Source of the DNA: Cyanophora paradoxa CCMP329
Lineage: Eukaryota; Plantae; Glaucophyta
Length of the DNA stretch: 64,000 bases
Assembly: GCA_004431415.1 (NCBI GenBank)
Contig: QPMI01000133.1
Location: 186,001-250,000, forward strand
Reading direction: 5' to 3'
Shown: in pieces, positions 2,123 through 20,092 of the stretch
Layout: each line of letters begins with the position of its first letter
How positions within the stretch are numbered: the first letter of the stretch is position 1
Position numbers and translations under genes: made by a program
Notes under the pieces: model-generated
The model's database searches: none
The model's input: only the letters and a program-made list of their open reading frames with translations
What the model was told of the DNA's origin: nothing

Positions 2123-2164
2123 GTCCCCGAATTATTTTCTTCCATTTGAATTATAAACACTTCA

Positions 2165-3553
2165 ATGGATGTTACCCAAAACTTGCAACGTCTTGGTCTA
2201 AAGGAGCTGCTCACAACTCCGCAGGAAGCTAAGGATTTCTTTATGAATAACGAGCTCATGCTGGGGATGACAAGCCAAACCAAACCGGTAAGGGTCGTCG
2301 TAAACCCGAGCAATGACTATGGAGACTGCTTCGGAAAGAGGGTTACTTATTTCCTGCCCCGTTACAATTTCCTTCAGGGGCTTGAACTCCAGTTTACCCT
2401 GCCCGAGCTGACCGCTTTTACTGGTGACACTGACCTGGTTCGCACTGGTTATCTGCGGTCTGTTGGTGCTCTTGTAAAGCGAATTGAAATAAAATATGCT
2501 TCCTACAGCTACATCGTCCCTGAAGACTGGCTTGTTCACAGCGCTCTGATTTTCAATGATGATGCACAGCTCAAAAAGAAATACCGGTCTGGTGGCTGGC
2601 TCCATGGAACCCCACCTCAGGGGACCAATCGCGCTGGAGGTATTTTCAGCGTAAAGATCCCCTGCCCCTGGGAGGGCTCAGTGCTTCCAATTGGTGCGCT
2701 CTCCGGCGAGGTGTCTGTCGAGGTTTGGTTCCGTGACCGCGCCCAGGGCTTCGTTGAGACCAGCTATGGTGGTAGGTTTGTATCAGAATATGCCGCAAAC
2801 GGTGATGCCTCTAAAGACGATGGCCTCGGAAGCGTAGGTGCTGCCGCTGCATCCCCTGCAAACATTGGCCAGAATATAACTCCCAATGTCCTCACTGTCA
2901 CTCCTGAAAAACCCGAGCTTTCGAATCCGAAGATTATAGCTCACTGCATCAACGTTGATGAGGCCACTTTTGCCCAGGTGATTGAGAAAGTCAAATCTTC
3001 GGGGATTGCGATTCCTGCAACTGAAGTTGGTTGGGTTGATGCTGACTCAATTACCTATGCAGGTGCTGGTGCGCCTACCCGGATTAATCTGTCTCAAATC
3101 AGTGGGCTCTGCTATGGCCTTTTTGTTAGCATTCGCAAGCAGACAAATATGAACCAAACTGATGGAAAACACAGCGTCCTGAAAACGGAGGCCAATGCTC
3201 GTGATATAACTATTTCCTGCGAATTGAATGGCCAGCGTCTCTATTCTAACGAGCCAGTGCCACTCCTTCAAGGTGCAGAACTCATTGCTGATGTGTTCAA
3301 ATGCTCAAATCTCGATGCACCTCTTAACAGATATGTGCTGAGTGGATTGCCATTTTGCATTAGTGGAGATCAATCGATCCGAAATGCAGCTCAAACTGGT
3401 TTCGTGGATCTCACCAACAGTAGCAGTTGCTTCTTGAATATAATGAACCCTGCCGCTTATGATGCAGCCAACAAGATTTACGTTCAAGTCCGCGCTCTCC
3501 TGCACACTGTCCTGATTGTGGATGCTGCAGGCCTCCGCAAGGTGAACCTCTAA
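2165..3553 (+). CDS. Double jelly-roll major capsid protein with NCLDV-like motifs
   Basis: 462 aa. FGKRVTYFLPR..L.LQFTLPEL, VGALVKRIEIK, KIPCPW..LPIGAL..EVSVEVWFR, GFVDLTN and a terminal VRALLHTVLIV..G parallel NCLDV MCP motifs. Sits between penton and ATPase genes. Confidence 0.85.
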   Translation: MDVTQNLQRLGLKELLTTPQEAKDFFMNNELMLGMTSQTKPVRVVVNPSNDYGDCFGKRVTYFLPRYNFLQGLELQFTLPELTAFTGDTDLVRTGYLRSVGALVKRIEIKYASYSYIVPEDWLVHSALIFNDDAQLKKKYRSGGWLHGTPPQGTNRAGGIFSVKIPCPWEGSVLPIGALSGEVSVEVWFRDRAQGFVETSYGGRFVSEYAANGDASKDDGLGSVGAAAASPANIGQNITPNVLTVTPEKPELSNPKIIAHCINVDEATFAQVIEKVKSSGIAIPATEVGWVDADSITYAGAGAPTRINLSQISGLCYGLFVSIRKQTNMNQTDGKHSVLKTEANARDITISCELNGQRLYSNEPVPLLQGAELIADVFKCSNLDAPLNRYVLSGLPFCISGDQSIRNAAQTGFVDLTNSSSCFLNIMNPAAYDAANKIYVQVRALLHTVLIVDAAGLRKVNL

Positions 3554-3573
3554 TTTCACCGACTATCTTTTTG

Positions 3574-4326
3574 ATGGATGGGTCAGACGAGCTCGCACAG
3601 TTCCAGCCGGGAGATATAAGGGTTCCATTCAAAGCCCTATTTATTTCAAAGTCTAATAGCGGCAAGTCTTTCTATTGCACCAAACATCTGCTAAGACTGC
3701 TGTATCCAAAGATCAATCGAGTCGTCGTGTTTACGGCCACCAAATTCAATGGTGAATATGCTGGAATAACAAATGAGCTTTACGACGATTTTCAGCCCTC
3801 TATCGTTGCAGAGATAATTGACTCACAGCGCAAGCTGATCGAAAACAAAAAGAAAGCGCCACAGATATTGCTTGTATTGGATGACCTCGTTGCTGCATCT
3901 GAAACTGTTGATCTTCGAAACAGCAAGGTTGTTAATCGACTTTTTATGCAGTGCCGCCATTTTTGCATTTCTACGATTTTAATGTCGCAAAAACTGACTG
4001 CTTTGAGTCAATCTATAAGATCGAACTCCGACTATTGTTTTTTCTTCAGTTACTCTAATCACACGGAGCTGGAGGCCATTTATAGAGAGTTTAGCCATCT
4101 CCCAAAAGAAGAATTTATAGCTTTATTTGAAACCTGGGCGCACGATTATCAGTGCCTAGTCCTGGATGGAACTAAATATGATACTGCCTGGTACGTTGAC
4201 AAGGCTGCAGAAGATAAGAGCTTTCGCTTCTCTAAATGGCTAAGACAAAAAGAAGAAGAAGGCCCTAAGACGGAAGAGTCTCTTGTAAGCTCTAAGAAGA
4301 AACGCCGATTTAAAATATCAGTATAA
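3574..4326 (+). CDS. A32-like (FtsK/HerA) genome packaging ATPase
   Basis: Walker A SKSNSGKS, Walker B LLVLDD, and A32 signature CRHFCISTILMSQ..IRSNSDY. Confidence 0.92.
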   Translation: MDGSDELAQFQPGDIRVPFKALFISKSNSGKSFYCTKHLLRLLYPKINRVVVFTATKFNGEYAGITNELYDDFQPSIVAEIIDSQRKLIENKKKAPQILLVLDDLVAASETVDLRNSKVVNRLFMQCRHFCISTILMSQKLTALSQSIRSNSDYCFFFSYSNHTELEAIYREFSHLPKEEFIALFETWAHDYQCLVLDGTKYDTAWYVDKAAEDKSFRFSKWLRQKEEEGPKTEESLVSSKKKRRFKISV

Positions 4327-4335
4327 GAGTATTAG

Positions 4336-4974
4336 ATGGGTCGCGGGATTCCTAAGAAGGGCTATCGTGAACGACGCAAGGTTAATATATCTGAGCCGAA
4401 TGCCCCGCTGATTGAGAGCGGTGCCACAGAGGGCGCAGCTGTTGCTGAACCTAGCGGGGAGCTTGCAAGCGACCCCCAACTAAATGCCCCTGTGGCGAAA
4501 ACAATTGCCTCTGCAGCTGCTGGGGCCAGTGCAACCGACGATCGTCACGCCCAGGCTAAAACTGTAAACGAAATGCAGTCCGATATCGACGCCGACGCGG
4601 CAAGGATACTGCAGGCACTGGCTAGCGAGCCGCGGTACTCTGGACCTAAAATAAAAGCGCCAACCGTAAGCAAAACACAGTTCGATGAGCTTGCAGCGAA
4701 ATTGCGCGATCTAGAAGCTAGGTCATCGAATATTGAATCGTATGTGAAGGAAAAGCAAGAGAGAGCAAAGATCCGCGACATGTTGCGCAGCGAAATGTTT
4801 AAGCACAGACCCATGGACGTGCCGGATTTGCGGTATCTGAAAAACGAAAAAGAGAAGGCCTCACAAGCTCTCGATGACGCTGCTGTGAAGCCCGCAACGC
4901 CTTATGTGTCTGAGCCCAATTCTACAAGCTCTCAATTGAAGGGAGCGATGGGTGGCCGGAGGATTCGACTGTAA
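4336..4974 (+). CDS. Hypothetical viral protein with basic termini and a central coiled coil
   Basis: 212-aa ORF packed 9 nt after the ATPase. No recognisable family. Confidence 0.7.
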   Translation: MGRGIPKKGYRERRKVNISEPNAPLIESGATEGAAVAEPSGELASDPQLNAPVAKTIASAAAGASATDDRHAQAKTVNEMQSDIDADAARILQALASEPRYSGPKIKAPTVSKTQFDELAAKLRDLEARSSNIESYVKEKQERAKIRDMLRSEMFKHRPMDVPDLRYLKNEKEKASQALDDAAVKPATPYVSEPNSTSSQLKGAMGGRRIRL

Positions 4975-5627: not shown

Positions 5628-5664
5628 AAAGGAAAGGAGCCGCGGGCGGGCGGCCTTTCTTTTT
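5628..5664. terminator. Hairpin between convergent genes
   Basis: AAAGGAAAGG-AGCCGC..GCGGC-CTTTCTTTT stem-loop between the stops at 5611 (+) and 5664 (-). Confidence 0.45.
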
Positions 5665-6851
5665 CACGCTCGCGGTCGCAGCGTTCGCGTATTGCTAGGG
5701 GCTGAGTACGCTGCAGTTTTATTCTGGAACGACGAATACCAGCGCCTTGTTACGCCCCCTGGGTTCAGCTTCTCTGTGCCTGCAGTCAACAGTTGCTTCT
5801 GCACACGCTCAAGCTTGCGTGCCCTCTCGATATCGCTCTTGTCTAAATTCTCCTGCATCAGATTAATCTCTTTCTTCCTGCGCTGCTGCGCTCGCTGTGC
5901 TGCATTGCCCGCACGACGTTCCTCTGAATCTGCCGCTACTTTTAATAGTCGCTGGTAGGTCACAGCTTTGTCGTAGCCCGAAAGCGTAAATTTGAGCAGC
6001 GGCCCAAAGCCACCTATCTCCGTAATCGTATAGATTTCTTTAGAATACGTCGGCTTTGATGACTTGTCGAATCGCTGACGCTCTAGCTGCACACGCACTC
6101 GATCACCTATCTTGAAGTCCGCTTGCGCAAAGTAATGCTGCTGCTCGTAAGCCTCTCGCTGATAATCGTTGCGAGCAATCGTCTCCTTTGGATTCTCGGC
6201 TGCTGCGTTCGGCGACGTACCGATTGACCTATGCTCTGATGAATTATAATTGCGCAAGAAAGCAGGCAGCTTATCGATATATCTGTCCGTGTCGTACGCA
6301 TCCATGTACTTTGCAATGATGCGCTTAAGCGTACCATTAAATCTCTCTATTTTGCCGTTCGCTTGCGGGCGATGCGCCTCCACTGCATTATGCTTGATTC
6401 CCATACTCGCCAGCATTGCTGCTGCGGTTCCCTTAAACTCCTGATCGGTCTGAATGACGTCCGGCTTCGAGGGGAGCTCATCAATCAATTTCTTCAAACT
6501 CGCTAGCAGAGTGCTTTCCGATTTCGTCTTCATAGGAATGCTATACGCTTTACGCGTCGTCACATCAATACCGTTCATAATAAAAGTAATCCCTCGATTT
6601 GTTCTTGCATACGGGGTCACATCAATCAGATCAACTTCGTAGTACTTTTCGGGCTCCTCGTAAATAATGCTGGTGGACGGCTTTTCCTTCACGGGTTTCG
6701 CAAAACGCTGTGCCGTCGTTAATTTCGAAAGCACGTCCTGCACTTTTGATAGCGGTAAATTGAGCCGCTTAGCTATCCGCGCCGCAGACTGAAAGCCAGT
6801 TTCCGGATCGTAATAAGCTTGTTTAATTCGACTCGCCTGCTCGGTACTCAT
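5664..6851 (-). CDS. Polinton-type retroviral-like (rve, DDE) integrase
   Basis: YYDPETGF N-terminus. Catalytic D (EVDLID), D (IQTDQEF) and E (NGKIERFNGTLK). YNSSEHRSIGTSP and FKIGDRVRV..FDK..YSKEIYTI C-terminal block. Confidence 0.95.
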   Translation of the reverse strand: MSTEQASRIKQAYYDPETGFQSAARIAKRLNLPLSKVQDVLSKLTTAQRFAKPVKEKPSTSIIYEEPEKYYEVDLIDVTPYARTNRGITFIMNGIDVTTRKAYSIPMKTKSESTLLASLKKLIDELPSKPDVIQTDQEFKGTAAAMLASMGIKHNAVEAHRPQANGKIERFNGTLKRIIAKYMDAYDTDRYIDKLPAFLRNYNSSEHRSIGTSPNAAAENPKETIARNDYQREAYEQQHYFAQADFKIGDRVRVQLERQRFDKSSKPTYSKEIYTITEIGGFGPLLKFTLSGYDKAVTYQRLLKVAADSEERRAGNAAQRAQQRRKKEINLMQENLDKSDIERARKLERVQKQLLTAGTEKLNPGGVTRRWYSSFQNKTAAYSAPSNTRTLRPRA

Positions 6852-9800
6852 GGGGGACGCTACTATAGTACTCGTCCGAAATTATCTTGCGCTTTGTATA
6901 CTGCGACCTGTTCAGCTGTCGAGCAAACGGAATTTGGATCATGGAACTAAAGCTGATTCCGCTCTCCCGTTGCCGCCCGTTCGGTTTATAAACACGGGCC
7001 AGCTTTGATTCGATTGTGCATTTGGGTTGGTACGCGGGATCCTCGAGCATGCACCTGTAAGCTTCCAGAGCGATCCTGCGGTCGAGGGCCCCCTTCCTCG
7101 CCTCTGGTTCGTCTGGCAGCCAGTGCTCCTGGATCCACGATTGCGGAATCCCCTTTGCGCGTACATGCAGATCAAACTGCGCGTCGCTGTCCCGTACAAA
7201 TAAACAAGTATAAAGCTTCGGCCCAATAAAGTACGCTTCCACAATCCGCCCTTTAATGTCACAGTCAAGTTTCCCTAGTTCCTGCCTGCAAATGTCCGCA
7301 TCTGTTGCTGTCGCTATATCATATGCTGGCTTCATATAACCCTTTGCCCGCAGCAGATCGGCGTATTTTCGATGGACAATCAAAGAGTCCGTATCAGTAT
7401 AAAACGGCATTGCATCAATGTTCCAGTATGCGCCTATTTCAATTAGAAACCTGTCCATGATCTCCCGCGAATATGACAGAATAAATGCGCCAATAAAGCA
7501 CGGTTTAGAGACAGCTCTATCACGCTTGGACTCCTCAATCTCGTACGTGACAAACATCCGCGTGTCTGACTCGATCGAAATGTCTGTGATCTGCGCTGAT
7601 CGCTGAATTTCTCGAAATCGCTTGTACGATGTGACTAGATCCGAGGTGGTGATGACAGGCCGCTGGCAATATTTACCGTAAAGGCCATTCATGGAAATCT
7701 TTGACGTCGCGTACTGAGCTGTCCCCTTGCGAGATCTAGCTTTCTGGCAGTACATACGCTCCATGTAGGTCTTGAATATTTGATCTTTTCCGTCAAACAG
7801 GTAGACCTCGTGCACCTTTGTCACCTCGCACCCCAGCTTAATTGCACGATTAATATCGACTGACGTATACCAGCCGCGCTCAATCGGCTTAAGATTAGAC
7901 CAGCCTAGATTTGATTCATGCCGCGGCAGCGGAGAGAGCAGCAGATTTTGCGGAATTGTCACGTCCACGCACGCAATAAACATCAGCGAACGCTGACTCG
8001 ATTGGACAAATTTGCAGAATCTGTCCAGTGCATCGGGCGACGTAATATGCTTGTACTTACCAGTCGGAAACCAATTCTCGTACATTGCCGTCGGATACAA
8101 GCTTACGACATCCAAGTCGACTAAATAATCATCCGGGCCCGATGAGACGAATTTGCGTTTAAACGGGAGACACCGCCCACCGTATATTGCCTGGCGCAGC
8201 ACCTGATCATCCTTGTAGGTCGGCAGCGAAATTGGATTGATCAACGTCTGCCGATGAATCTGGAACGCCATTGCCGAAGCTGTGGTTGTTTGCGTTGTGT
8301 TAACGTTTAAGCCGTACAGATCGAAGACTGCTGTCGAATATTTAATGTAAAGCTCTGTCATTGCCTTAACGTCGTCTTCCACGTACGGCTCCCATTCAGA
8401 TTTAAAGCGCTCAACGTCCTCCCACGTTTTAATCTTGCTATGATCAAAATCTCCCTTTACGTTAGTGCAGCCGTAGTCCTTGCAGGCCTGTTTGAGCGAA
8501 GCCTGGATGTGCAGGCACGGATCAAACGTACTTATAGGCCCGCCTGCAGCCGTTTTCCACGACATATTCTTGATCTTGCCGTTCGACCGCAGAACGTTCA
8601 CAGCTGCATTCGGTCGATTTATCACGAGCCATTTGTAGACAAATATATAATCGAAACCAGATCCATTGTAGAACACCAGCGTCGTCTTCTCGCTGCGGCG
8701 CTCGAGCCAGCGCATGAATATATCCAGCGTTTGCTCGCCATAAATTAACTCGCACGAGGACACCCCTCCTCTCTCAATCGTGCAATAGCTGACAGCGTAC
8801 GGGACGTGCGTTTTACCATCGGCAGCAAACGTTTCGAAGTCCGCGCAGACGACGCTGTCCAACGCTGTAAATTCTGTCTCCGGTTTGCAGGGCTTGATCT
8901 GCCGCCCGATCACGTTTTGACGGCGCGTCATCTCCTGGCACTCTGATGAATGATCTTTTCTGGGGTCGTACGCGCGTTTGCAGTTATTGCAGAACGTGCA
9001 TTGCTCCGCATGTGTCGCCAAATCAAACATCTTACCGCAGCAAGGGCACCGCTCCAGACCTAGTGTCGCCTCCTTTTTAATCAGATAGCAATGCCCATCG
9101 ATGTTGCAGAGAATTGCACGCTTCGAATAATCAAACTGGGTTCGAAAAAGCTCCTTGAATTTCGTGTTTGTCCACTCCGTCACAGTTGCATCTATCGAAT
9201 AAAATCCGCAGATCGCTTCCACTGTGCTGCGATCAAGAGATATCATGCCCTTTCCCAATCCGAGCCGCTCTCGAATAGATGCATAGGGTGCCTTTGCCAG
9301 CTTTTCGATTACTGTCTTCAGGCTCAGTCCGCGTGGATCTAATTTAACGTACTCAAAGCATTCGAGCACGCAGTCATTCGCTGGGGACATCGGGCAGTAT
9401 AGCTTATCGACTGTCCTATGATAAAATGGCAATTTCGGAACATTGCCCAGGGCGCCAGCCGCGTTGTCTGCAATTAACACCTCGATCAATATTACCACCC
9501 AAATATCGTCCTCCTGATATGACAATTGCGCTGACATCCACTGCGCAATCCGCTCATCTAAACTCTCAGTCAAAGTCTGCAACCCGTTCTGTCTGATTTG
9601 AATTAGCTGGGTCGTATACATGTGATTATTGTCAAAGCGGAACCGGATTATCACAAATCGCCCTATCATCTCCGCAACGCCCAGCTGCCCGAGGATGTCA
9701 ATCGTTAAATTCTTGACCGACTCAGGATCGAAGTTGGGCTCAATCGCATATACGTGCTTATCAAACAGCAAATTCGGATAGCGGTGATGCCTGTGAGAAA

Positions 9801-10149
9801 GCACACCATCTAGATCTCGCGGCACTGGTATTTCTTCAACGTCTTGAAATATATTCGGGACGTCTTCTAGTATCGCCTCCTCGGCCTGAACGGCGTTTGC
9901 GCGAGCTGCTGCAATTGCGCCAAAATGGCCTGCGAGCTGGCTTTCAAATAATCGGCGAGCTGGGCGAACTGTCCCTCGCAATCGCAGCAGTGTCGCAATA
10001 TAGTTGCGAATCGTGCGGCCCCAGGTCCCGCCGCTAGCGTCTGCTAGGCGCATTAGTTTATTTCGAAATGTCCCGTGAATATATCCACGATCGTAAAGCT
10101 CTGTCGCTAAGTTTCTAAGTTCGGTCTTAAGTGCTGCAGTGGTGGCCAT
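6823..10149 (-). CDS. polB: Protein-primed family B DNA polymerase with N-terminal terminal-protein, OTU-like and Zn-finger regions
   Basis: Exonuclease motifs ADFET, FYNGSGFDY and YVEDDV. Polymerase motifs DVVSLYPTAM, KISMNGLYGK, YTDTDSL, GPKLY and KGI. First ATG is at 10149. Confidence 0.95.
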   Translation of the reverse strand: MATTAALKTELRNLATELYDRGYIHGTFRNKLMRLADASGGTWGRTIRNYIATLLRLRGTVRPARRLFESQLAGHFGAIAAARANAVQAEEAILEDVPNIFQDVEEIPVPRDLDGVLSHRHHRYPNLLFDKHVYAIEPNFDPESVKNLTIDILGQLGVAEMIGRFVIIRFRFDNNHMYTTQLIQIRQNGLQTLTESLDERIAQWMSAQLSYQEDDIWVVILIEVLIADNAAGALGNVPKLPFYHRTVDKLYCPMSPANDCVLECFEYVKLDPRGLSLKTVIEKLAKAPYASIRERLGLGKGMISLDRSTVEAICGFYSIDATVTEWTNTKFKELFRTQFDYSKRAILCNIDGHCYLIKKEATLGLERCPCCGKMFDLATHAEQCTFCNNCKRAYDPRKDHSSECQEMTRRQNVIGRQIKPCKPETEFTALDSVVCADFETFAADGKTHVPYAVSYCTIERGGVSSCELIYGEQTLDIFMRWLERRSEKTTLVFYNGSGFDYIFVYKWLVINRPNAAVNVLRSNGKIKNMSWKTAAGGPISTFDPCLHIQASLKQACKDYGCTNVKGDFDHSKIKTWEDVERFKSEWEPYVEDDVKAMTELYIKYSTAVFDLYGLNVNTTQTTTASAMAFQIHRQTLINPISLPTYKDDQVLRQAIYGGRCLPFKRKFVSSGPDDYLVDLDVVSLYPTAMYENWFPTGKYKHITSPDALDRFCKFVQSSQRSLMFIACVDVTIPQNLLLSPLPRHESNLGWSNLKPIERGWYTSVDINRAIKLGCEVTKVHEVYLFDGKDQIFKTYMERMYCQKARSRKGTAQYATSKISMNGLYGKYCQRPVITTSDLVTSYKRFREIQRSAQITDISIESDTRMFVTYEIEESKRDRAVSKPCFIGAFILSYSREIMDRFLIEIGAYWNIDAMPFYTDTDSLIVHRKYADLLRAKGYMKPAYDIATATDADICRQELGKLDCDIKGRIVEAYFIGPKLYTCLFVRDSDAQFDLHVRAKGIPQSWIQEHWLPDEPEARKGALDRRIALEAYRCMLEDPAYQPKCTIESKLARVYKPNGRQRESGISFSSMIQIPFARQLNRSQYTKRKIISDEYYSSVPHEYRAGESN

Positions 10150-10251
10150 TGCAATCGCTTTCAAGAAGAGGGACTGAAATTATTTTTGGATTTCAACGCA
10201 ACAATCTCTGACTGTCAGTTAAACTGAGAGGAACCTTTAAGCCATAGCTCA

Positions 10252-10764
10252 GACGTTCGCGACTTTGGACAAAAGTTCACGTCGACGTTCGCGACTTTGG
10301 ACAAAAGTTCACGTCGACGTTCGCGACTTTGGACAAAAGTTCACGTCCAAAATCCTCAAGCATGCTGGCGCACCCCCGCGCATGTCTCGCGCAATCTAGA
10401 CGCTAATATAGCCTCAATTACACTATAAGAGACGACTAGACTAGCTGCTAGCCAATTTGGGCGACGTTCTGAAGTTCGTGACTTTGGACAAAAGTTCACG
10501 TCCAAAATCCTCAAGCATGCTGGCGCATCCCCACGCGTGTGTGGCATGATCAAAGCGCTAGTATAGCCTCAATTACACCACAGGAGACTACTAGACTACT
10601 TGCTAGCCGATTCGGGCGCCGTTCTGAAGTTCGTGACTTTGGACAAAAGTTCACGTCCAAGGTCGCCTAGTGACTTTGGACAAAAGTTCACGTCCAAGGT
10701 CGCCTAGTGACTTTGGACAAAAGTTCACGTCCAAGGTCGCCTAGTGACTTTGGACAAAAGTTCA
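10252..10764. repeat. Array of 8 copies of GACTTTGGACAAAAGTTCA
   Basis: Copies start at 10261, 10293, 10325, 10480, 10635, 10672, 10709 and 10746 (spacings 32, 32, 155, 155, 37, 37, 37). Confidence 0.95.
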
Positions 10765-10774
10765 AGAGCAATCT

Positions 10775-11352
10775 CTAGGCCTTATCGATCTGGCTATCCT
10801 TATCACTGTCAGGCTTGATGATCTTCGAGATCTCTCCGCGAATGCGGCGTGCAAGTTGAATGTCCTTCGGCATGATAGTGACGCTGCAACGGAAAACGAT
10901 TAGAGGATTGCAGGATATGACAAAAAGCAAGTTGGCTCACCGTTTAGCATGAATCGCGCACAGGTTAGCATCTTCGAACACTCCCACCAGGTAAGCCTCG
11001 GCGGCAGTCTGGATCGCCAGCATGGCGTGCGACTGGAAGCGCAAGAGGGGATTAATGTCCTGAGTGATCTCGCGAACGAGTCGCTGGAATGGCAGCTTGC
11101 GAATCAGGAGATCCGTGGTCTTCTGGTACTTGCGGATCTCGCGCAACGCCACAGTGCCTGCAATCGTGATAATTAGATGAAAGCGACGGACGCACAGCTG
11201 CAGGGAATCCGTTGCTTACCTGGGCGATAGCGATACGGTTTCTTGACTGGGCTAGCCGCAATCGCGCGTTTCTTGGCTACAATGCTCAGTCTCGCCTTGC
11301 GTTCAGCGTTGTCTACAGTGCGCTTGGTCGGGTTGGCCTTCACGCGCGCCAT
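10775..11352 (-). CDS. H3: Histone H3 variant, 3 exons (11352-11220, 11157-10941, 10883-10775), 152 aa
   Basis: GT-AG introns 11219-11158 and 10940-10884 restore KKPYRYRPG|[12 protein letters not shown]...AIHAKR|[17 protein letters not shown]. Tail is divergent and the C-terminus is extended. Confidence 0.93.
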
Positions 11353-11449: not shown

Positions 11450-12136
11450 CTGCCTGGGAAGTTGTTTTTCACTTTTTCGGTTCACTTTGAAGCCAGCGGC
11501 GAAGCGACTTGTTTTTCGATTATTTTAACAACTTCGAAGTCATTTTTTGATCATATATATATTCAATGTATCTACTAGTAGCCTAGTAGCAGGTACTATG
11601 GAGGCCTGGAGGCTGGGGCCCGGGGGCCTGGGGCCCGGGCCCCGCGCAGGGCTGCAGCTGGTTTTCAATGATATTCACAACTTCGAAGTCGTTTTTTTGC
11701 CTGCCTGGGAAGTTGTTTTTCACTTTTTCGGTTCACTTTGAAGCCAGTGGCGAAACGACTTGTTTTTCGATTTTTTAACAACTTCGAAGTCATTTTTTGA
11801 TCATATATATATTCAATGTATCTACTAGTAGCCTAGTAGCAGGTACTGGGCCTGGAGGCTGGGGGCCTGGGGCCCGGGCCCCGCGCAGGGCTGCACGCAG
11901 GGCTGCAGCCTCGGGCCTGGCCACAAAAAAATAGCTTGAAAGTGACCGGAAAAACCAAAAAATAACTTCCAAGTCGGACGCTGATTGGCCGATGTGACGT
12001 AACACGAGCCTCGGAGCCAGCCGGCCTGGGGCCCCGGGGCCCGGGCCCCGCGCAGGGCTGCAGCCTCGGGCCTGGCAACAAAAAAATAGCTTGAAAGTGA
12101 CCGGAAAAACCAAAAAATAACTTCCAAGTCGGACGG
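11450..12136. repeat. Nested direct duplications between the H3 and Rep genes
   Basis: About 11450-11658 is repeated at about 11701-11910, and about 11865-11980 at about 12035-12135. ACTTCGAAGT/ACTTCCAAGT motifs recur. Confidence 0.85.
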
Positions 12137-13167
12137 CCTCGGAGCATAATACTGATAAAGTACAGACCTTAATATTCTGCATTACGGTAGCTAGTAGTAT
12201 AGCTATAGCTAGAGCCGGCGCACCGGTGCCATAACACTGCCATTACTGTGCAGTACACTGCCGTACCGCCGGCGCGGTCGACGTCGATATCGCCGAGTCG
12301 ATCCGGTCCCGGGCCTCCCGCGGCCGCCATGCAGACTCCCGGCCCGCCGGCGCCGCCGGGCCGGCGCGGGTCCGCCGCGTACCGTACTAACCGTAGTACT
12401 GTGGCACGCGTACCGTACTAACCGTAGTACTAGCTATACTATGATAGTCAGGTCCGTCGAGATCCGTGGTAAGTTTGCGGCACGGAACCTTGACATGATT
12501 GGCCCGGCCCTGGCAAGCAGCCGGCGCCGCCGGCTCAGCGGCTGGGAAAAACAATGCAAAACCAACTTTGAAGTCATCACTTTGAAATTGGAACTACAAA
12601 TTAAGGTTATATTTGATAGAGTTTCAACTGTACCCTAAAGCTGAACATCACTGTACCACTCCTTCTTTTTTTTCACGAGCAGGAGCGTAGAACTTCTCCA
12701 GCGAGCAGCTGAGCGAGCGGGGTGCACGCCGCCTTTGCGAGCATTCATAGTTCATCATAGAGCACCGTTTCCAGCTGTCCGCGGCGCCCGTACGTGTAGA
12801 ACTTTCCAAGCCTTCCTCATGGCTTGCACTGCTACGTCCTCACCATCGCGCACTCAGATCGCTTGAAACAAGTTTGGAACACGATATATAACACCTTCGA
12901 AGCCTCTAATCCGTGCGCCAGCCGCCCTCGCAGAGCACCCGTTGCTTTCGCCGAGTCGAATTCATTTCATTCACTTTCTTTCGAATTCGAATTCCAACTC
13001 GAACTTCGGAAGCGGTTAAGGCATAATAAGTTTTAATAAAATAACGTTTTAAATTTTAAATTATTGGGTACACGATTATTCAGATATTGATAGTGACCAG
13101 CTACATACTTTTATTTAATTTAATTTTGTAATTTGGCTTACCGTTTGTTATTAACGCAGATCAGACC

Positions 13168-14698
13168 ATGGACAACTTCGAAGTCGGAATGCAATTGGTG
13201 CACGTGAACAATTATGGGCCCGCGCCTGCAGCTGCGGGCGCCGGCGCCGGCGCCGGCGGTCCAGTGCCCGCCGCCGCGCCAGCTGCGCATGCAGCTCCAG
13301 CTGTGACTAGGGTCAAGCCGCCCAAAAAAAGTGTCCTGTTCCACTTCGTGATCACGGTAGAAGTCATCGTCGATCCGGAAACTGGTCGGGACACCTGGAG
13401 AGTCCTGCCAATCACGGGCGAAGATTCATTGTTCAACATGCCCGGGTTCGAGCACCTGCGCTACTGTTGCTACCGCATGCGACGCAACCCTATCAACCCT
13501 GGGACGGTCCTGCTCGAGGTATGCATTCGGATGTCATATTCATATGCATATTCGTGTAGATTATTCATAGATGTGTCTACGCACATTCGCAGGGGATGCT
13601 TTACTACTATGAGCAACGTTACTTCACGAATGTGAAAATGGCCTTTCGAGGCTCCGGATTCAACATCAGTTGGCCTCGCATTGCGAACCTAGACAGGAAC
13701 CGCAACTTGCAGGCTCTGCGTACACGCTACATGTCGGGCGAGCAAATCGCGTTTGCTGAGCACGGCGACATTGTCAACCAGAGAGGCGCTCGGAGGGACC
13801 TTCGAGACATGGAGGAGTGGATCGTGGAAAATCAGGCCACATTTGATCAGGTAGCGATCAATAGCCTATATATCTAGTTAATAGCTAGGCCTTTATAAAA
13901 TAGCTAATCGCATGTGCATATATATATGACAATCGAAAGTCAGAAATTCCTAAGCTTGTAGTTGCAATTGCAGACGTAGTTCATCTTTAATTTTAATTCG
14001 AATTCCTGATCAGGTCGCGGACCACTTCTCACACAAGGCTATCAAATACCGCTCTTTTTTGACGGAACTCTGCTCCTTCAATACCCCACCAAAGCCGGAG
14101 ACGAGCATTACCCTTATTTGGGGAGACGCTGGATCTGCGAAGTCATCTGCCATCAGGAGCCTTCCTGGAGTCTACTTCAAGCCTAAAATCAGCAACAAGC
14201 AGGGTGATAATGACTTCTGGACGACTGATTACAAGGGTGAGAGTATTGTATGCCTGGACGAGTTCACAGGCGAGTACTCCATCGAAACCATCAATGGCTG
14301 GTGCAATCCTGGGAACATACGAGTTCGGGTTCTCTATGGCTGGATCGCGTTGTGCGCCACAGAGATCGTCATTATCTCGAACGACTTCATCAGAAACATG
14401 GCAGCTCTGCAGGGTAATTAGTTATATAATTAATTATGAAAGATGACTTTCGCAACTGATCCTGTAACCTAACTCAGATACTTCTGAGGCCGTTTGGACC
14501 GCCTTTTTCCGCCGTGTTAAGAAAGTGATCCGGATGAATGGCAAGGTCGCTGAGGCCCGCAATGGCGCCGCAATGGCAGGCGCTGCACCCGTAGTGGTCA
14601 ATGCAAACAACCGTCCTGCTCAGGAGGTTATTGCTGAGATTGTGAACGCGACGGGAATCAACCAGGACGACGACCAGGATCAGGACGATCAAGAGTAA
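13168..14698 (+). CDS. rep: Spliced CRESS-DNA-virus (circovirus-like) Rep/SF3 helicase homologue, 4 exons (13168-13518, 13593-13850, 14014-14413, 14478-14698), about 409 aa
   Basis: Three GT-AG introns join frames cleanly. Motifs in order: FHFVIT (I), VLLEGMLY (degenerate II), RYMSG (III-like), EHG..QRGARRDL linker, WGDAGSAKS (Walker A), FWTTDYKGESIVCLDEF (B), IVIISN (C), AFFRRV (Arg finger). Confidence 0.85.
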
Positions 14699-14716: not shown

Positions 14717-14892
14717 GAAAAATCAGCTATAGCTAGGTTTCTTGTGAGCCAAAGGCTACGCAAGCTGGCTATAGTCAACGCTTTTGAAAATCAGCTAGGT
14801 TTCTTGTGAGCCAAAGGCTACGCAAGCTAGCTTTAGTCAGCTTTCGAAAATCAGCTAGGTTTCTTGTGAGCCAAATGCTACGCAAGCTAGCT
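14717..14892. repeat. Three tandem units of about 60-69 bp downstream of Rep
   Basis: AGCTAGGTTTCTTGTGAGCCAAA(G/T)GCTACGCAAGCT occurs three times. Confidence 0.92.
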
Positions 14893-15050
14893 GGCATTCT
14901 CTCCTGAGGCCGCAGCAGACCGCGCGCAAGCAACCGGGGCCCCAAGTACACCCACACACGCCCTCCTAAACTCAGTTCCGATATCTCCCTAAACTAACGC
15001 CTAATCAACACGTCCACTCTAGCTCACTAATTTCGCTCAATGATCACGCT

Positions 15051-15124
15051 TATAGGGGTGGACCCCTGATGGTAAAACCAGACTTTGGGGGGCGGTCTGG
15101 TTTGAGGGGGGGTCCTCCCCTTTA
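15051..15124. repeat. GC-rich nested inverted repeat (hairpin) at a compositional junction
   Basis: Outer arms 15051-15066 and 15109-15124 (14/16 complementary). Inner arms AAACCAGAC 15075-15083 and GTCTGGTTT 15095-15103. Confidence 0.85.
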
Positions 15125-15614
15125 CAACATAGCAGAGACAGAGATAAAATCATTTACACTTTCTCCAACTTGCTATTTGAAAAGGACTTATTGCCCACGA
15201 CTGTGTGTCGCAAGACAGATTCCTAATCAAACAGGATCTTCAACATGTTCAAATGGTCAATCTGTCTTCATTTCACCACCTACTTACGGCACCTATCTTA
15301 TTGACAATGAAGGCAACTTTGGATCTTCACGATTTACAGCACCCGTTGCGGGTGTTTACCGTTTTTTCTATACAACTATGAGGATAGATAATCAGACTTC
15401 TTATGTAACTGTGTTTCGGCTACACATAAATGGAGTTGCATCCAATTACGAATTTAGTTGTTCACATAATGGATATGTTTCGCCGGCAATCACATATGAA
15501 ACATTAATAACTCTGAATACTGGGGACAATGTTTCAGTGGTGAACTCATCTGGTGTTACTATCACACTGGACACACGATCTTTCTTGGGTTGCTATCTGG
15601 TAAGCACCATATAA
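15125..15614 (+). pseudogene. 5'-truncated fibre gene retaining a C1q/TNF-like head domain
   Basis: SFTLSPTCYLK..PRLC and IDNEGNF..RFTAPVAGVYRF align with the C-terminal half of ORF 15637. Homology begins where the hairpin ends, and the annotated ATG lies inside the hairpin. Confidence 0.7.
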
Positions 15615-15636
15615 TATTGTCTGTATAGTATAAAGA

Positions 15637-16662
15637 ATGTCTACACAAATAGCCGTTCCTGTTTTCTGTTATGCCGCCCCAAAAATACATCAACTTAACC
15701 ACACAGTCACAGATGCAACCCCTGGTTTTATTTGCACAGAAACAACAGGAGCCGATTCATTTTCTCAAAACTCTGTGATTAGATGCAAAGAAATACGATG
15801 TGATCGCAATAACGGAAAGGTAAGAACCACAGGTTTAATAGTTTCAAATAAGAACCAAGTTCAATCGGGATCAATTGTCCCAGATTCAGCTATTTATGAT
15901 GATGTGGGAGGGTTCACCACACCTAAAATAGTTACTTTTGATAATACAAGTAATAACTCGGCTCTTGTGGTTAAAAGTGGAGGTGCCTACATTGGAGATG
16001 GAGCAAGGATAAATGGGAATCTCACAACTGAACAAATCACAGTAACAGGAGCAACTACATTTAATGATTTGGTGACAGCCAATGGGGGTGTGTATGTTCC
16101 TGGGGCGCAACAATCTATTGTGACAGCAACTACCAAAATAGTGACACCTGAAATAGACACAGGATCAAGCGCAAATCTGGTTTTGAAACGCAACAGTGAT
16201 GTTATGGCGACCCTGGAAGCCAATAGTTTCACCCTAAATACAGGTTGTTATTTAAAGTATGATTTTCAACCTCGATTCTGTGCGCAACTGGGTTACACAC
16301 ACACTGCAACAAGTGCTGCTGTTCTAATCAATTGGACAACCGTTTTTATTGATAACAGAGGTGCATTCAATACAGGTAATGGAAGATTTACAGCCCCTGT
16401 CGCTGGTCATTACAGACTTACAGCAAACTCTCAATCAACAACCTCATCTGCTGTAAATCTCACAATGCAAGTGAATGACACTAACCCTGGGGGTGTATCC
16501 CTCTTCACCTCAGGAACTTCGACTACAATTGGTGTAAAACCTCTATATATTAATGGTATACTCAATCTTGCCGCGGGAGAATATGTAACACTTGTCACAG
16601 GAACCACAGGTAGTTATTCAAGTCGAACAATGTTTACAGCTGAACTTCTAAGTATCACATAA
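15637..16662 (+). CDS. Fibre/spike protein with shared N-terminal domain, shaft and C1q-like head
   Basis: ALVVKSGGAYIGDG shaft motif. IDNRGAFNTGNGRFTAPVAGHYRL..LNLAAGEYVTL..FTAELL C1q signature. Confidence 0.8.
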   Translation: MSTQIAVPVFCYAAPKIHQLNHTVTDATPGFICTETTGADSFSQNSVIRCKEIRCDRNNGKVRTTGLIVSNKNQVQSGSIVPDSAIYDDVGGFTTPKIVTFDNTSNNSALVVKSGGAYIGDGARINGNLTTEQITVTGATTFNDLVTANGGVYVPGAQQSIVTATTKIVTPEIDTGSSANLVLKRNSDVMATLEANSFTLNTGCYLKYDFQPRFCAQLGYTHTATSAAVLINWTTVFIDNRGAFNTGNGRFTAPVAGHYRLTANSQSTTSSAVNLTMQVNDTNPGGVSLFTSGTSTTIGVKPLYINGILNLAAGEYVTLVTGTTGSYSSRTMFTAELLSIT

Positions 16663-16683
16663 ATTTCTTTCTATTAAGTAGGA

Positions 16684-16950
16684 ATGTCAAATATCTATCA
16701 AGTAGGTCTATCTGATACTGAGAAATTGGGAATGGAATATTGCGCTGCTTCTGTTCAGGATTGGATCGATAATGTGGTTCACAATAGGGCAAGAATTGCA
16801 ATCGATGATATTGTTCAAAAAGAAATTCAATCTTGCATCTCATCAGGAGTTCAAATACCAACCTCAAAGGAAGCGATTGTGTTACAGGCATTCCAAAGGG
16901 GAACTGTAAAGAAAGGCATAGAGTATAATAATCTCACAGAAGAGCAATAA
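16684..16950 (+). CDS. Small helical protein, possible fibre-associated chaperone
   Basis: Clean 88-aa ORF inside the fibre cassette (MEYCAASVQDWIDNVVHNRARIAIDDIV). Function is inferred from context only. Confidence 0.6.
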   Translation: MSNIYQVGLSDTEKLGMEYCAASVQDWIDNVVHNRARIAIDDIVQKEIQSCISSGVQIPTSKEAIVLQAFQRGTVKKGIEYNNLTEEQ

Positions 16951-16985
16951 ACATTATTTTTCTTTCCTTCTTAGTAAAAGAAGCA

Positions 16986-17840
16986 ATGGGCGAATATAAT
17001 CGAGTTCAACTTCCAATATATTCCCTTGGATCCCCAGCAATGCACTTTCGCCAGCATGAAGTTAATGATGAGGTTCGTGGTTTAGAATCCACAGAGAGAC
17101 CCAATTCCAATGGTAACTCCTTTGATAAGAATTCGATTATTCGAGTTAAAGAGCTGAGAGCTGATAAGAACTCAGGTGTGGTGAAAACAACTCGACTCCT
17201 GGTCTCAAATGCGAACTTTTTTCAACCTACTAATGGAGGTCCTGATGCTTACAGTGTTGATCTGAAAGCCCTTGATTTCGATAAGAATTCTGCTGCTGCT
17301 ACAATTCGTTCAGGTGGAGCATTTATTGGTGGTGGCTGTCGAGTTTCAGGTCAACTTTCTTCATCAATTTCGTATAATGATGTCCCAGATACTCTTGAAC
17401 AGAATGTGGAGAACCCACAACGAATTCGGTTCTATACACCAGTTGCACAGCAACCTTTTCTGCATTTCTATGTTGCATCATCTGTCACTCTTGAAAATTC
17501 AGAATTGGTTTCCATTACAGGAACTGATCGAGTGAGAAGGAATATTCCTCTTCCCACAGCAATGCTCTCAATGTGCAGAGCAAATAATAACCAACAGGGT
17601 CACAATTACCTATTCTTTGTTCAAGCATCAAATCATTTCGGTCGGGGATATTGTGTTTATAACAATCTGACATTTACTTATGATTTGTTTGTCACTGAGG
17701 TTGGAGTTTACAATACTATGATTATGGGACTGAGAACAGATATAGCAGCTGTTTCAGCACTTCGTGGGGTAAACATTGCAGATATCTTCACAACAGGGTT
17801 TTACCAGGAACCAGATGTGATTGATAACCCAACCCCATAA
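16986..17840 (+). CDS. Fibre-family paralogue with shared N-terminus and alternative C-terminal domain
   Basis: IIRVKELRADKNSGVVKTTRLLVSN..SGGAFIGGG shared with ORFs 15637 and 17864. Confidence 0.75.
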   Translation: MGEYNRVQLPIYSLGSPAMHFRQHEVNDEVRGLESTERPNSNGNSFDKNSIIRVKELRADKNSGVVKTTRLLVSNANFFQPTNGGPDAYSVDLKALDFDKNSAAATIRSGGAFIGGGCRVSGQLSSSISYNDVPDTLEQNVENPQRIRFYTPVAQQPFLHFYVASSVTLENSELVSITGTDRVRRNIPLPTAMLSMCRANNNQQGHNYLFFVQASNHFGRGYCVYNNLTFTYDLFVTEVGVYNTMIMGLRTDIAAVSALRGVNIADIFTTGFYQEPDVIDNPTP

Positions 17841-17863
17841 ATTATATATCTGTTTAATGTAAA

Positions 17864-18691
17864 ATGGCTGCCCCAGTTGAGAGAATTATTACACCCCAAC
17901 TATCATTAGCAGCACCTGCAAATCACGTTTTGCAGCATGCTACCTTTGATGATGTGGAAGGTCTCCAATCAACAGAAGTCCAACCTACAATGAATACCTT
18001 TGGTTCCACCCACAAACTGAGATTGCAGGAACTCAGGTGTGATAAAAATAATGGTATAGTTAAGACAACGAAACTCCTTGTCACCAATGCAAAGTTTTCT
18101 GCACATTATGGAGACCCAGACAGTTATGGTGATCCTCTTTCTACTTATTCTTTTGAATCTCGGTCGGGAGCTATTAACTGCAAAACGGGGGGAGCATATA
18201 TTGGTGATGGTCTTCGGATTGGTGGAGCTGTGGGTGCGCCTCTTTTCGTAAATGATCAACCCAACCCCATTGATCCCAACACCAGAATTCGCACCTATGT
18301 CCCCAGTATGAATGCACCATATATTATAAAGATCTTCCCAATTGTTGTGAATGAACAGACATCAGTAGTTGATTCTCTTGTTGAGATTGGTGACCACTAC
18401 AAGGTGGTCGTGGATATTCCACCAGATGTTTATGCTGTCTGTCAAGTAGAGGGTGGAACCCCAAATATTGCAGTTGTGATCACCCCATATGACAATTTCG
18501 GAATCGCTTATCATGGAGTGAATTTCGGTCTTGAAGATTACCAGTTCTTGGTGAGAGCCACCAGATTTGGTATCTACAAATGCATTCTCTATGCTGAGAG
18601 AACCGATGCTATTGCAAGACAGAATACATATGCAGAGTATTACGGCACAAATCGATACTTCCCCATTTTCGGGCAGGATACTGCTCCATAG
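17864..18691 (+). CDS. Fibre-family paralogue with shared N-terminus and alternative C-terminal domain
   Basis: LRLQELRCDKNNGIVKTTKLLVTN..TGGAYIGDG. C-terminus (RIRTYVP..NFGIAY..GIYKCILYAERTD) is homologous to that of ORF 16986. Confidence 0.75.
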   Translation: MAAPVERIITPQLSLAAPANHVLQHATFDDVEGLQSTEVQPTMNTFGSTHKLRLQELRCDKNNGIVKTTKLLVTNAKFSAHYGDPDSYGDPLSTYSFESRSGAINCKTGGAYIGDGLRIGGAVGAPLFVNDQPNPIDPNTRIRTYVPSMNAPYIIKIFPIVVNEQTSVVDSLVEIGDHYKVVVDIPPDVYAVCQVEGGTPNIAVVITPYDNFGIAYHGVNFGLEDYQFLVRATRFGIYKCILYAERTDAIARQNTYAEYYGTNRYFPIFGQDTAP

Positions 18692-18716
18692 AAATCTCAG
18701 GTATATATAGAGAGGG

Positions 18717-18989
18717 ATGGATGATAAAACAAAGAAATTCATAGAATCTGCAATGATGGTTCATGGTGATGCTAAATTCGATTATAGTGAGACAGTCTAT
18801 AAGAAAGCGCAAGAGAAGGTCTCTGTTAGATGCCTCAAATGCAACAAGATCCTCCAAACCTACCCATTTAATCATGTAAGGGGAAGTGGATGCAGAGAGT
18901 GCAACAAGAAATCCTCTCATGCTTACAGAAAAAAGACTACATCAGGAATTGTTATAGATGATAAACCAGTGGTATTATATTTCGATTAG
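18717..18989 (+). CDS. Stand-alone zinc-ribbon domain of the HGDKYDYS type (DUF723-like)
   Basis: FIESAMMVHGDAKFDYSETVY..VSVRCLKC..PFNHVRGSGCREC resembles the repeat module found on giant-virus and phage endonucleases. No nuclease domain is attached. Confidence 0.7.
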   Translation: MDDKTKKFIESAMMVHGDAKFDYSETVYKKAQEKVSVRCLKCNKILQTYPFNHVRGSGCRECNKKSSHAYRKKTTSGIVIDDKPVVLYFD

Positions 18990-19135
18990 ATCTTTGAGAG
19001 AGAAATGAGAATCTTTCCCCATTTTCCCTTGGTGATTATGCATGTGTCAAAACAGTTTGGACAGGTCTTGTGGTAGTGCAGCAGAATGATATCCACCAAC
19101 TCATAAGGTAGCACTCTTGCTAAGATGGTTCGCAT
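18986..19135 (-). CDS. 49-aa ORF with an F-box-like start (not in ORF track)
   Basis: MRTILARVLPYELVDIILLHYHKTCPNCFDTC...SKI* fills the gap between neighbouring genes. Confidence 0.4.
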   Translation of the reverse strand: MRTILARVLPYELVDIILLHYHKTCPNCFDTCIITKGKWGKILISLSKI

Positions 19136-19175
19136 TCTACCAATCGCGTTTTTAATTTTTCTAAATTATTCATAA

Positions 19176-19577
19176 ATGAATACTCATCGAGGCTTCCATG
19201 TGATGCTGGATTACAAATTCAGAACCCAATTAGCAGTAGGAGTGGAAAACTTGGAGACAACAACCAGGTGGTTAATGCAGTTCTTGCAAACTATTATTCA
19301 AGAGCAAGGTATTCGAGTAGTTCACAAGCATTGCGAGATTTTCGATGGTGGTATTTCTCCTCCTGGTTTTGCAATGGTTCTTCTGCTGGATGAGAGCCAC
19401 TGCACTGCTCACTGTTACTCAAATGAAGGTATGTTGGCGATTGATATATTCAGTTGTGGATTAGAAGCAGAGAGAAAAACCACGAGAGTATCTCATGAGA
19501 TAGATGAGAGAATAACAGGTGTGTTTTCAGGGTTGGAGAAATCGGAGAAACATAGAGTATTGCGATTTCCGAGTTAG
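19176..19577 (+). CDS. speD: Prokaryotic-type pyruvoyl-dependent S-adenosylmethionine decarboxylase family proenzyme
   Basis: GFHVMLD, PPGFAMVLLLDESHCTAHCY (E/SH self-cleavage site) and AIDIFSCG. 133 aa. Confidence 0.88.
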   Translation: MNTHRGFHVMLDYKFRTQLAVGVENLETTTRWLMQFLQTIIQEQGIRVVHKHCEIFDGGISPPGFAMVLLLDESHCTAHCYSNEGMLAIDIFSCGLEAERKTTRVSHEIDERITGVFSGLEKSEKHRVLRFPS

Positions 19578-19609: not shown

Positions 19610-20092
19610 CTTACTGAAAATGGTCAGATAATCGGGTGTGACACCTATTTAATTGACTGTGACGCCTCTTTAATTGACTGTGACGCCTGTGACGCCTGTG
19701 ACGCCTACTTTCAAACTTTTTAAAATTTTCAAAAATTACAGACTTCTGAAAACAGCCGTCACAGCCGTCACAGGCGTCACACCCAATTAACAATGGAATC
19801 TCTTTCTCTTACTGAGATTTTCGAGAATATATTCTTGTCTTACTGAAATCCGTCTTGTGACACCTCTGACACCTACAAAACACTATCCATTAATCAACCT
19901 TTTTGAAAATGCGAAGTTGGCTTACTGGAAATGGTCTGCAATTTCGCTGTGACACCTAATTTAATTGAGTGTGACGCCTGTGACGCCTGTGACACCTACT
20001 TTCAAACTTTTTAAAATTTTCAAAAATGACAGACTTCTGAAAACAGGCGTCACAGCCGTCACAGGCGTCACAGACATTCCACCCCTCTTACT
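19610..20092. repeat. Two copies of a roughly 180-bp unit with inverted 9-bp iteron triplets around an AT-rich core
   Basis: (TGTGACGCC)x3, A/T tract, (GSCGTCACA)x3 at about 19610-19790 and about 19921-20092. Confidence 0.9.

Follow-up and report, generated by a model that had tools for sequence, protein, structure and literature searches.

Replication modules are known to move between single-stranded DNA (ssDNA) viruses and double-stranded DNA (dsDNA) elements, as in avipoxviruses and one virophage family, and bidnaviruses are a further case of this. According to the available parts of the two sources, avipoxviruses captured Rep genes from draupnirviruses, a transfer from a cressdnavirus to a dsDNA virus (PMC10193959), and virophages of the Gulliviroviridae have circovirus Rep-like nickases, some of their genomes encoding both a replicase and an initiator (10.64898/2026.10.13.758929). 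With these two precedents, a Rep of the type encoded by circular Rep-encoding ssDNA (CRESS) viruses is not new in kind on a small dsDNA element. The large T initiators of polyomaviruses and the E1 initiators of papillomaviruses derive from inactivated endonucleases, and nuclease-dead Rep derivatives are held to underlie them. The term "inactivated derivatives" is used in the abstract of PMC13595969. Intermediates, in which a CRESS-type Rep on a dsDNA element has freshly lost its catalytic residues, were not found described in the literature that was searched. Here we describe a predicted four-exon Rep-like gene borne by a Polinton-like element in 64,000 nucleotides of the GC-rich genome of Cyanophora paradoxa CCMP329 (assembly GCA_004431415.1, contig QPMI01000133.1, positions 186,001 to 250,000 of the forward strand; this whole stretch is called the window below). 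The reading that we favour, tentatively and at a little short of an even chance, is that the gene encodes a CRESS-type Rep with a likely diverged, predicted-dead HUH domain, and that this protein would not be a rolling-circle nickase but a factor that binds DNA, forms hexamers and serves the replication or regulation of the element.

The Rep-like gene lies on the + strand, with a start ATG at 13168 and a stop TAA at 14696-14698, and its spliced coding sequence (CDS) of 1230 nt gives an open product of 409 amino acids from four exons separated by three GT..AG introns (Table 1). The coordinates of these introns and of the open frame, which had been proposed in a first-pass annotation of the same DNA, were recovered exactly from the sequence, the splicing itself being predicted. 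When exon 3 was searched with HMMER against 1.84 billion representative proteins, 43 matches were obtained at E <= 1e-3 (the best at 8.5e-7) and no close relatives were found at E <= 1e-10. The RNA_helicase family (PF00910) was present in 41 of these 43 relatives and Viral_Rep (PF02407) in 29, 24 of them at the curated cut-off; the 14 relatives without Viral_Rep are mostly short proteins beginning at the linker, and three of them (P0005, P0014 and P0024) display HxQ and YCxK by eye. Contigs were looked up for ten of the relatives, and nine of these were 1.7-3.8 kb long and one was 9.4 kb, all of the proteins being unnamed bar one annotated as "hypothetical protein". The two top matches of exon 3 in a PDB sequence search were porcine circovirus 2 Rep helicase chains, aligned in the correct register at weak significance (E 0.08 and 0.15). 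No longer relatives of exon 3 were found by a word-indexed protein search, and none at all in the viral_contigs or metagenome_contigs collections.

A custom Rep profile was built from 27 of the 29 Viral_Rep-bearing relatives, excluding P0019 and P0041, in which the N-terminus is cut, and the 14 relatives without Viral_Rep. Positions 89-287 of this profile aligned to residues 164-365 of the spliced protein with a score of 118.7 bits, crossing the exon 2/3 and exon 3/4 junctions. In a six-frame scan of the 1135 open reading frames (ORFs) of the window the exon 3 ORF ranked first against the profile (E 3e-28) and the exon 2 ORF second (E 0.011); the match of exon 2 is non-circular, as exon 2 played no part in picking the relatives. 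The exon 4 ORF on its own was not significant (E 4.7), and the same scan yielded no further ORF of Rep or HUH type in the window. The two Pfam profiles named in the first-pass annotation behaved differently when applied exon by exon, RNA_helicase being found in exon 3 below threshold (15.8 bits, E 0.02, with the cut-off at 21.5 bits) and Viral_Rep in neither exon 1 nor exon 2 (E <= 1). Exons 1, 2 and 4 gave no Pfam families, and a weak match to PPV_E1_C (E 0.16) was also seen. On this sequence evidence we take the CRESS-Rep ancestry of residues 164-365 to be established, and the origin from an ssDNA-virus Rep that had been put forward earlier holds for the C-terminal two thirds of the protein, with the motif III tyrosine, the linker and the superfamily 3 (SF3) helicase.

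Motif residues were counted over the 43 relatives aligned to the custom profile, 33 of which reach the motif III columns (Table 1). The motif III tyrosine is kept (Tyr163), and Gly166 stands where 32 of the 33 relatives have the lysine of YxxK, a loss that had been noticed at first pass. The Walker A motif reads GDAGSAKS, also as noted then, and carries Ala245 where 42 of the 43 relatives carry Gly. The motifs that had been called intact, Walker B (DEF), motif C (SN) and the Arg finger (RR), are indeed conserved among the 43. The wider statement that the product has all Rep landmarks is too strong, Viral_Rep being found in neither of the first two exons and motifs I and II depending on a marginal alignment, which is given below. 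With respect to membership of the CRESS Rep class, the closest sequence relatives of the protein are CRESS Reps, motif III departs from YxxK by the replacement of Lys, and no HUH nuclease domain (Viral_Rep or Gemini_AL1, with motifs I and II) is recognisable.

Upstream of motif III the protein consists of a low-complexity head (residues 1-45) and an N-terminal domain (residues 46-160) that is beyond Viral_Rep detection. With hhalign a colinear alignment of this domain was obtained, in which motif I is matched by FHFVITV (58-64), the strand normally closed by the metal-binding Glu by LRYCCYRMRR, GTxHxQG by GTVLLEG (112-118) and YCxK by RYMSG. Its score was reached by 4 of 200 shuffles in local mode and by 9 of 200 in global mode, and when motif III and everything downstream of it were removed the same alignment was recovered (15.4 against 9.8 +- 2.0 for the shuffles, 2 of 100 of which reached it). 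Given the strong prior that comes from the downstream sequence, we regard this result as suggestive and not as proof. It would be consistent with residues 46-160 descending from an HUH domain that has lost its metal ligands, with L115 and E117 standing in motif II and Glu lacking from the strand before it. The earlier claim that motif II reads LLEG for HLQG is in the same position, in that the string is present (V114-L-L-E117 followed by G118, spanning junction 1) and its placement on motif II follows from the marginal hhalign alignment. It is a plausible reading rather than an observation, relying also on the predicted donor at 13519, and LLEG can be called a dead motif II only tentatively because the HUH nature of the N-terminal part is itself tentative.

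This uncertainty over motif II bears on whether the protein might be a still-active nickase with an unorthodox active site, replicating the element by a rolling-circle or nick-primed route beside protein priming, since ligands other than those aligned could be used and the catalytic Tyr is retained. Some small dsDNA viruses do encode HUH endonucleases, according to the available text of one study (PMC11253617). We nevertheless consider an active nickase very improbable, as the aligned motif II has no His, motif III has no Lys and the vicinity of the gene lacks a hairpin origin with the nonanucleotide. This sequence, NANTATTAC, is matched 4 times in the 64 kb (1.65 expected) and not at all between 10 and 15 kb, and no hairpin of note was found near the Rep-like gene; likewise no ssDNA-virus capsid family was matched by Pfam among the 13 large ORFs scanned, so that the absence of a CRESS capsid gene and of a nonanucleotide origin reported in the first-pass annotation is upheld. 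What marks the CRESS class at the level of the genome, a small ssDNA circle that carries a capsid gene and has a stem-loop origin with the nonanucleotide, is not found here.

Several results weigh against the reading of a CRESS-type Rep with a dead HUH domain. Residues 41-185 scored -0.5 bits with HMMER against the N-terminal part of the profile, which is within the distribution given by shuffled sequences (738 of 1000 reported; median -1.5, 95th percentile 0.6, maximum 7.8), hmmalign left residues 1-162 unaligned, and the probability that hhalign itself gave for its alignment was low (2%, with P 0.024 in local and 0.15 in global mode). Structure prediction was run on exon-wise pieces, and the AlphaFold2 single-exon models were of low confidence (predicted local distance difference test, pLDDT, 43.8 for exon 2 and 62.3 for residues 46-117). 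CRESS Reps have a helix after the first strand of the nuclease domain, and the low-confidence model of residues 46-117 has a beta-hairpin there, not the expected helix. These results would fit an N-terminal domain that is not derived from HUH at all and is an unrelated, new DNA- or protein-binding domain fused to the CRESS-type linker and SF3 helicase, in which case there never was a dead nickase motif. The undetected Viral_Rep signal upstream of Tyr163 fits this too, as does the ESM Atlas, which had no usable match for either exon-wise piece; in the PDB sequence search exon 1 gave only low-complexity matches and exon 2 nothing, and nothing meaningful came from PHROGs. We think such a fusion unlikely, because the significant alignment begins exactly at motif III, where Tyr163 is retained, and the remaining 115 or so residues are of the right length and align colinearly to motif I, beta-2 and motif II, as only 2 of 100 shuffles do.

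Other points against the favoured reading concern the helicase half and the state of the gene as a whole. The exon 3 share of the profile score is partly circular because the relatives were picked with exon 3. The glycine ahead of the P-loop lysine is nearly invariant among P-loop NTPases, and its replacement by Ala245 means that the ATPase may be impaired, so that "helicase" is uncertain as a description of the protein; this change was not weighed at first pass and may weaken the helicase half of the reading offered there. Loss of the exonuclease of the protein-primed family B DNA polymerase (pPolB) has been linked in print to the acquisition of a helicase. That link does not account for the present one, since the pPolB of the element keeps its exonuclease part (profile positions 6-92 and 136-463 are both matched). 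Identity to the nearest relative is at most 33% in a 44-row tree, so that conservation and selection are not measurable, and the DNA runs X1, X4, X12 and X20 have 0 differing letters over the gene stretch and hence offer no polymorphism for dN/dS. The Rep-like gene is the longest terminal branch of that tree (2.05 against a median of 1.2), which fits relaxed constraint as well as it fits changed function; built without an outgroup, the tree is silent on whether the gene groups with CRESS Reps. All of the evidence is from a single locus.

The long branch, together with an N-terminal domain beyond profile detection and the replacement of the YxxK Lys and the Walker A Gly at such conserved positions, is also what would be expected of a decaying relic, that is of a CRESS Rep, captured by the element directly or by way of the host, drifting without function in which the lost catalytic residues and the P-loop change are simply decay. 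We judge a relic to be unlikely, because 409 codons remain open over four exons with GT-AG at all three junctions, because the linker has been conserved along with Walker B, motif C and the Arg finger and because the neighbouring genes of the element are intact ORFs. A coding signature is also maintained, given a GC content at third codon positions (GC3) of 0.66 in the exons against an overall GC of 30-38% in the AT-rich introns (50-61% in the exons).

The introns were examined for how firmly their junctions are set. Counting the proposed introns, there are 9, 9 and 4 frame-keeping GT..AG combinations within +-60 nt for introns 1, 2 and 3 respectively, and because several combinations keep the frame open the junctions are not uniquely set by ORF logic. 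Junctions 2 and 3 are supported by homology, since the CRESS-type Rep profile aligns unbroken across both, and junction 1 is suggested by its donor sequence, base composition and a weak alignment only; an alternative intron 1 donor at 13507 would remove VLLE. The host spliceosome would presumably remove all three introns. Contigs of four presumed RNA runs with the same species label touch only positions 13220-13257, which are GCC-rich and of low complexity, with no splice joint, and are uninformative on expression. The rows listed for the four DNA runs named above contain two small insertions and one joint, all at or bordering the GCC-rich stretch at about 13230-13300, and 19 of the 20 sequencing datasets carrying the gene stretch may derive from the source organism itself; no RNA dataset is listed as carrying the gene. 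Codons 1-45 form a GCC-rich tract encoding Ala, Gly and Pro (13210-13300, 69% GC), to which numerous other contigs of this organism show cross-matches in the sequencing runs. A large survey of protist endogenous viruses assumed, in the available part of its text, that such elements "do not contain introns" (PMC10120064). The Rep-like gene and a neighbouring histone H3-like gene are missed by prokaryote-style gene calling because they have introns, and genes missed in this way may explain the lack of relatives in protein collections.

Table 1. Positions in the window of the Rep-like gene, its motifs and the features around it. Residues are numbered on the spliced protein; counts are over the 43 relatives, or over the 33 that reach the motif III columns.
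Feature	Position	Strand	Remarks
Exon 1	13168..13518	+	aa 1-117; Ala/Gly/Pro-rich low-complexity head, then first half of N-terminal domain
Intron 1 (predicted)	13519..13592	+	GT..AG, 74 nt, 38% GC
Exon 2	13593..13850	+	aa 118-203; second half of N-terminal domain, Y163-M-S-G166, CRESS-type linker G-A-R-R-D-L
Intron 2 (predicted)	13851..14013	+	GT..AG, 163 nt, 33% GC
Exon 3	14014..14413	+	aa 204-337, last codon split; SF3 helicase core
Intron 3 (predicted)	14414..14477	+	GT..AG, 64 nt, 30% GC
Exon 4	14478..14698	+	aa 337-409 and stop; Arg finger R348-R349, acidic tail after it
Walker A	14122-14145	+	G240-DAGSAKS-247
Motif III Tyr	residue 163		Tyr here; Tyr in 33/33
Motif III Lys	residue 166		Gly here (Y163-M-S-G166); Lys in 32/33
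Walker A, residue ahead of Lys	residue 245		Ala here; Gly in 42/43
Walker A Lys-Ser	residues 246-247		Lys in 43/43; Ser or Thr in 43/43
Walker B	residues 285-287		Asp-Glu-Phe here; Asp 41, Glu 30 or Asp 13, Phe 39, each of 43
Motif C	residues 325-326		Ser-Asn here; Ser 38/43, Asn 38/43
Arg finger	residues 348-349		Arg-Arg here; Arg in 42/43 at each
Tandem repeat, 60 nt x 2.6	14731..14892	.	directly 3' of the Rep-like stop codon
Histone H3-like gene	10775..11352	-	two predicted GT-AG introns; exons 11352-11220, 11157-10941, 10883-10775
pPolB ORF	6823..10179	-	1118 aa; Pfam DNA_pol_B_2, E 4.7e-52
rve-type integrase ORF	5664..6881	-	Pfam rve_3, E 2.3e-8
A32-like packaging ATPase ORF	3463..4326	+	Pfam Pox_A32, E 3e-8
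ORFs without Pfam family	1160-2122, 2150-3553, 4336-4974 among them		beside the ATPase
Two C1q-like ORFs	14970-15614, 15634-16662	+	Pfam
AdoMet_dc-like (S-adenosylmethionine-decarboxylase-like) ORF	19176-19577	+	Pfam, E 6e-11

A palindromic 10-mer, ACTTCGAAGT, occurs in 7 copies at 11531..13184 (4 exact and 3 with one mismatch) in the stretch from the H3-like gene to the start of the Rep-like one; the final copy makes up codons 3-6 of the Rep-like CDS. Allowing up to one mismatch it has 11 matches in the 64 kb against 0.96 expected, a number attained by 0 of 100 shuffles, and we consider the copies to be candidate binding sites or shared promoter elements. We propose that the Rep derivative would no longer nick DNA, with motif III lacking its Lys and, tentatively, motif II its His and the preceding strand its Glu, that it would retain the parts needed for oligomerising and holding DNA, and that it would bind the seven ACTTCGAAGT palindromes between itself and the divergent H3-like gene. 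Its mode of action would then resemble that of large T and E1, proteins of dsDNA replicons that join an inactivated, nuclease-derived origin-binding domain to an SF3 helicase. As an alternative model, the protein could act like CRESS Reps, which bind iterons and repress the promoter from which they are expressed. An extension of the proposal that we hold to be improbable is that a circovirus-type Rep, captured by a self-synthesising (pPolB) dsDNA element and with its nuclease off, and the ACTTCGAAGT array form an internal origin dependent on the host replisome, or a partition or regulatory site; together with the H3 variant and host splicing this could make up a nuclear "latency module", set apart from the virion genes and the protein-primed replication genes, which have no introns, and would be an independent, still recognisable repeat of the step held to have given the polyomavirus and papillomavirus initiators.

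Another reading is a role in defence, in which the dead Rep would be a cargo that poisons the Rep hexamers, or occupies the origin, of an infecting ssDNA virus or competing element and so protects host and element. Engineered geminivirus Rep mutants act as dominant negatives, and both enzymatic centres of the protein here are changed in ways that make dominant-negative Reps. Polinton-like viruses and virophages have moreover been discussed as carriers of defence genes, in the available parts of two sources (10.64898/2026.10.13.758929, PMC12220804). Such a decoy seems to us distinctly improbable, since with at most 33% identity to any known Rep the formation of mixed oligomers with a present-day virus is not evident, there is no known target virus, and palindromes adjoining the gene suggest that the target lies inside the element itself.

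The first 20 kb or so of the window has a GC content of 40-52% (about 45% for the block of more than 20 kb that contains the gene), rising to 55-79% beyond that. Judged by its genes the block is an integrated Polinton/Maverick-like dsDNA element, with the protein-primed PolB and rve-family integrase that characterise the Polinton/Maverick class, and these together with a packaging ATPase agree with the setting of a protein-primed dsDNA element that had been described at first pass. The capsid genes of the element may be among the ORFs without a Pfam family; neither the pPolB nor a 467-aa ORF had relatives in viral_contigs. The window begins inside the element, so that its left end is outside, no inverted repeat spanning the element was found in 1-24000, and the right end is probably at arrays of TGTGACGCC at 19.6-20.1 kb. 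This 9-mer is arrayed in both orientations at 19637-20076, with 113-nt direct and 116-nt inverted repeats, where the GC content rises.

The Rep-like gene is located between the pPolB and fibre-like genes, and a repeat-rich spacer of 1.8 kb separates it from the H3-like gene, whose middle exon matches Pfam Histone at E 1.1e-27. By eye the histone fold of the H3-like protein is near that of canonical H3, and its N-terminal tail is divergent, the usual contexts of K4, K9 and K27 being unrecognisable by eye. Dense tandem and dispersed repeats occupy 10252-10764 and 11450-12140 in the centre of the element, among them GACTTTGGACAAAAGTTCACGTC-containing units of 32, 37 and 155 nt, together with a 251-nt unit repeated 1.8 times that has GC-rich GGGCC tracts. 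The centre, with the intron-bearing and divergent H3-like and Rep-like genes, differs from the arms: the GC3 of the H3-like gene (0.70) and of the Rep-like gene is the highest in the element, against 0.55-0.57 in the pPolB and integrase, 0.42-0.52 in the ORFs on the ATPase side and 0.27-0.39 in the right arm. With a right arm (14970-19577) much more AT-rich at third positions than the pPolB/integrase arm, this may be a mosaic element, or two adjacent elements. Further along the window, at 41179-47034, a 363-nt unit is repeated 16.4 times (73% matches) with a strong positive GC skew, and the translation of its consensus is WD40-like by eye.

Provided that the Rep-like protein is produced and does bind the palindromes beside its gene, the change from nickase to origin-binding protein could be tested with this locus at the bench in a culturable host, and the locus may show how such Rep proteins become repurposed by dsDNA elements. 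The combination of a CRESS-type Rep with an intact pPolB and integrase, catalytic loss, spliceosomal introns and an H3-like neighbour was not found in the literature searched, which did not extend to supplements, where Rep-bearing Polinton-like elements may be listed.

Two other kinds of enzyme were considered as identities for the gene and rejected, on the available text of the sources. Replitron transposases of green algae and plants are nuclear-encoded, belong to a one-Tyr Rep class weakly linked to CRESS Reps, have no fused helicase and keep their HUH and Y motifs (PMC10288648), whereas here an SF3 helicase is fused and there is no HUH. The HUH enzymes of mriyaviruses are stand-alone proteins with active motifs, most like the rudivirus SIRV1 endonuclease (PMC11253617), unlike the gene here. 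Among described dsDNA elements, mavirus, as far as its available description goes, pairs a pPolB with a separate SF3 helicase (PMC11161782), and is like this element in that a pPolB element also encodes a stand-alone SF3 helicase protein; it differs in that here the exonuclease part of the pPolB profile is matched. In the avipoxvirus capture of Rep, as described in the text available, the recipient is a poxvirus and not an element of the present kind. The Rep-like nickases of the Gulliviroviridae, which can be compared by description only, are likewise CRESS-type Reps on a small dsDNA virus of the Polinton/virophage assemblage, but they go with a capsid lineage of virophages and are taken to be active, with introns or motif loss unmentioned in the available part of that source.

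As a working analogy, the polyomavirus large T and papillomavirus E1 proteins are like the product predicted here in having a nuclease-type domain without catalytic residues before an SF3 helicase, on a dsDNA replicon with repeated palindromes alongside. They differ in that there is no sequence relationship beyond the weak PPV_E1_C match, the element here has its own protein-primed polymerase, and the ATPase competence of its Rep-like protein is doubtful. In comparison with a CRESS Rep such as that of porcine circovirus 2, the gene is not on a circular genome of 2-4 kb, has three predicted spliceosomal introns and begins with a low-complexity head of 45 residues, and HxQ would read L-L-E, YxxK is YMSG and the P-loop is GSAKS; the order of its parts is the same, running from the N-terminal domain through the motif III Tyr and the linker G-x-R-x-D-L to an SF3 helicase with Walker A and B, motif C and the Arg finger.

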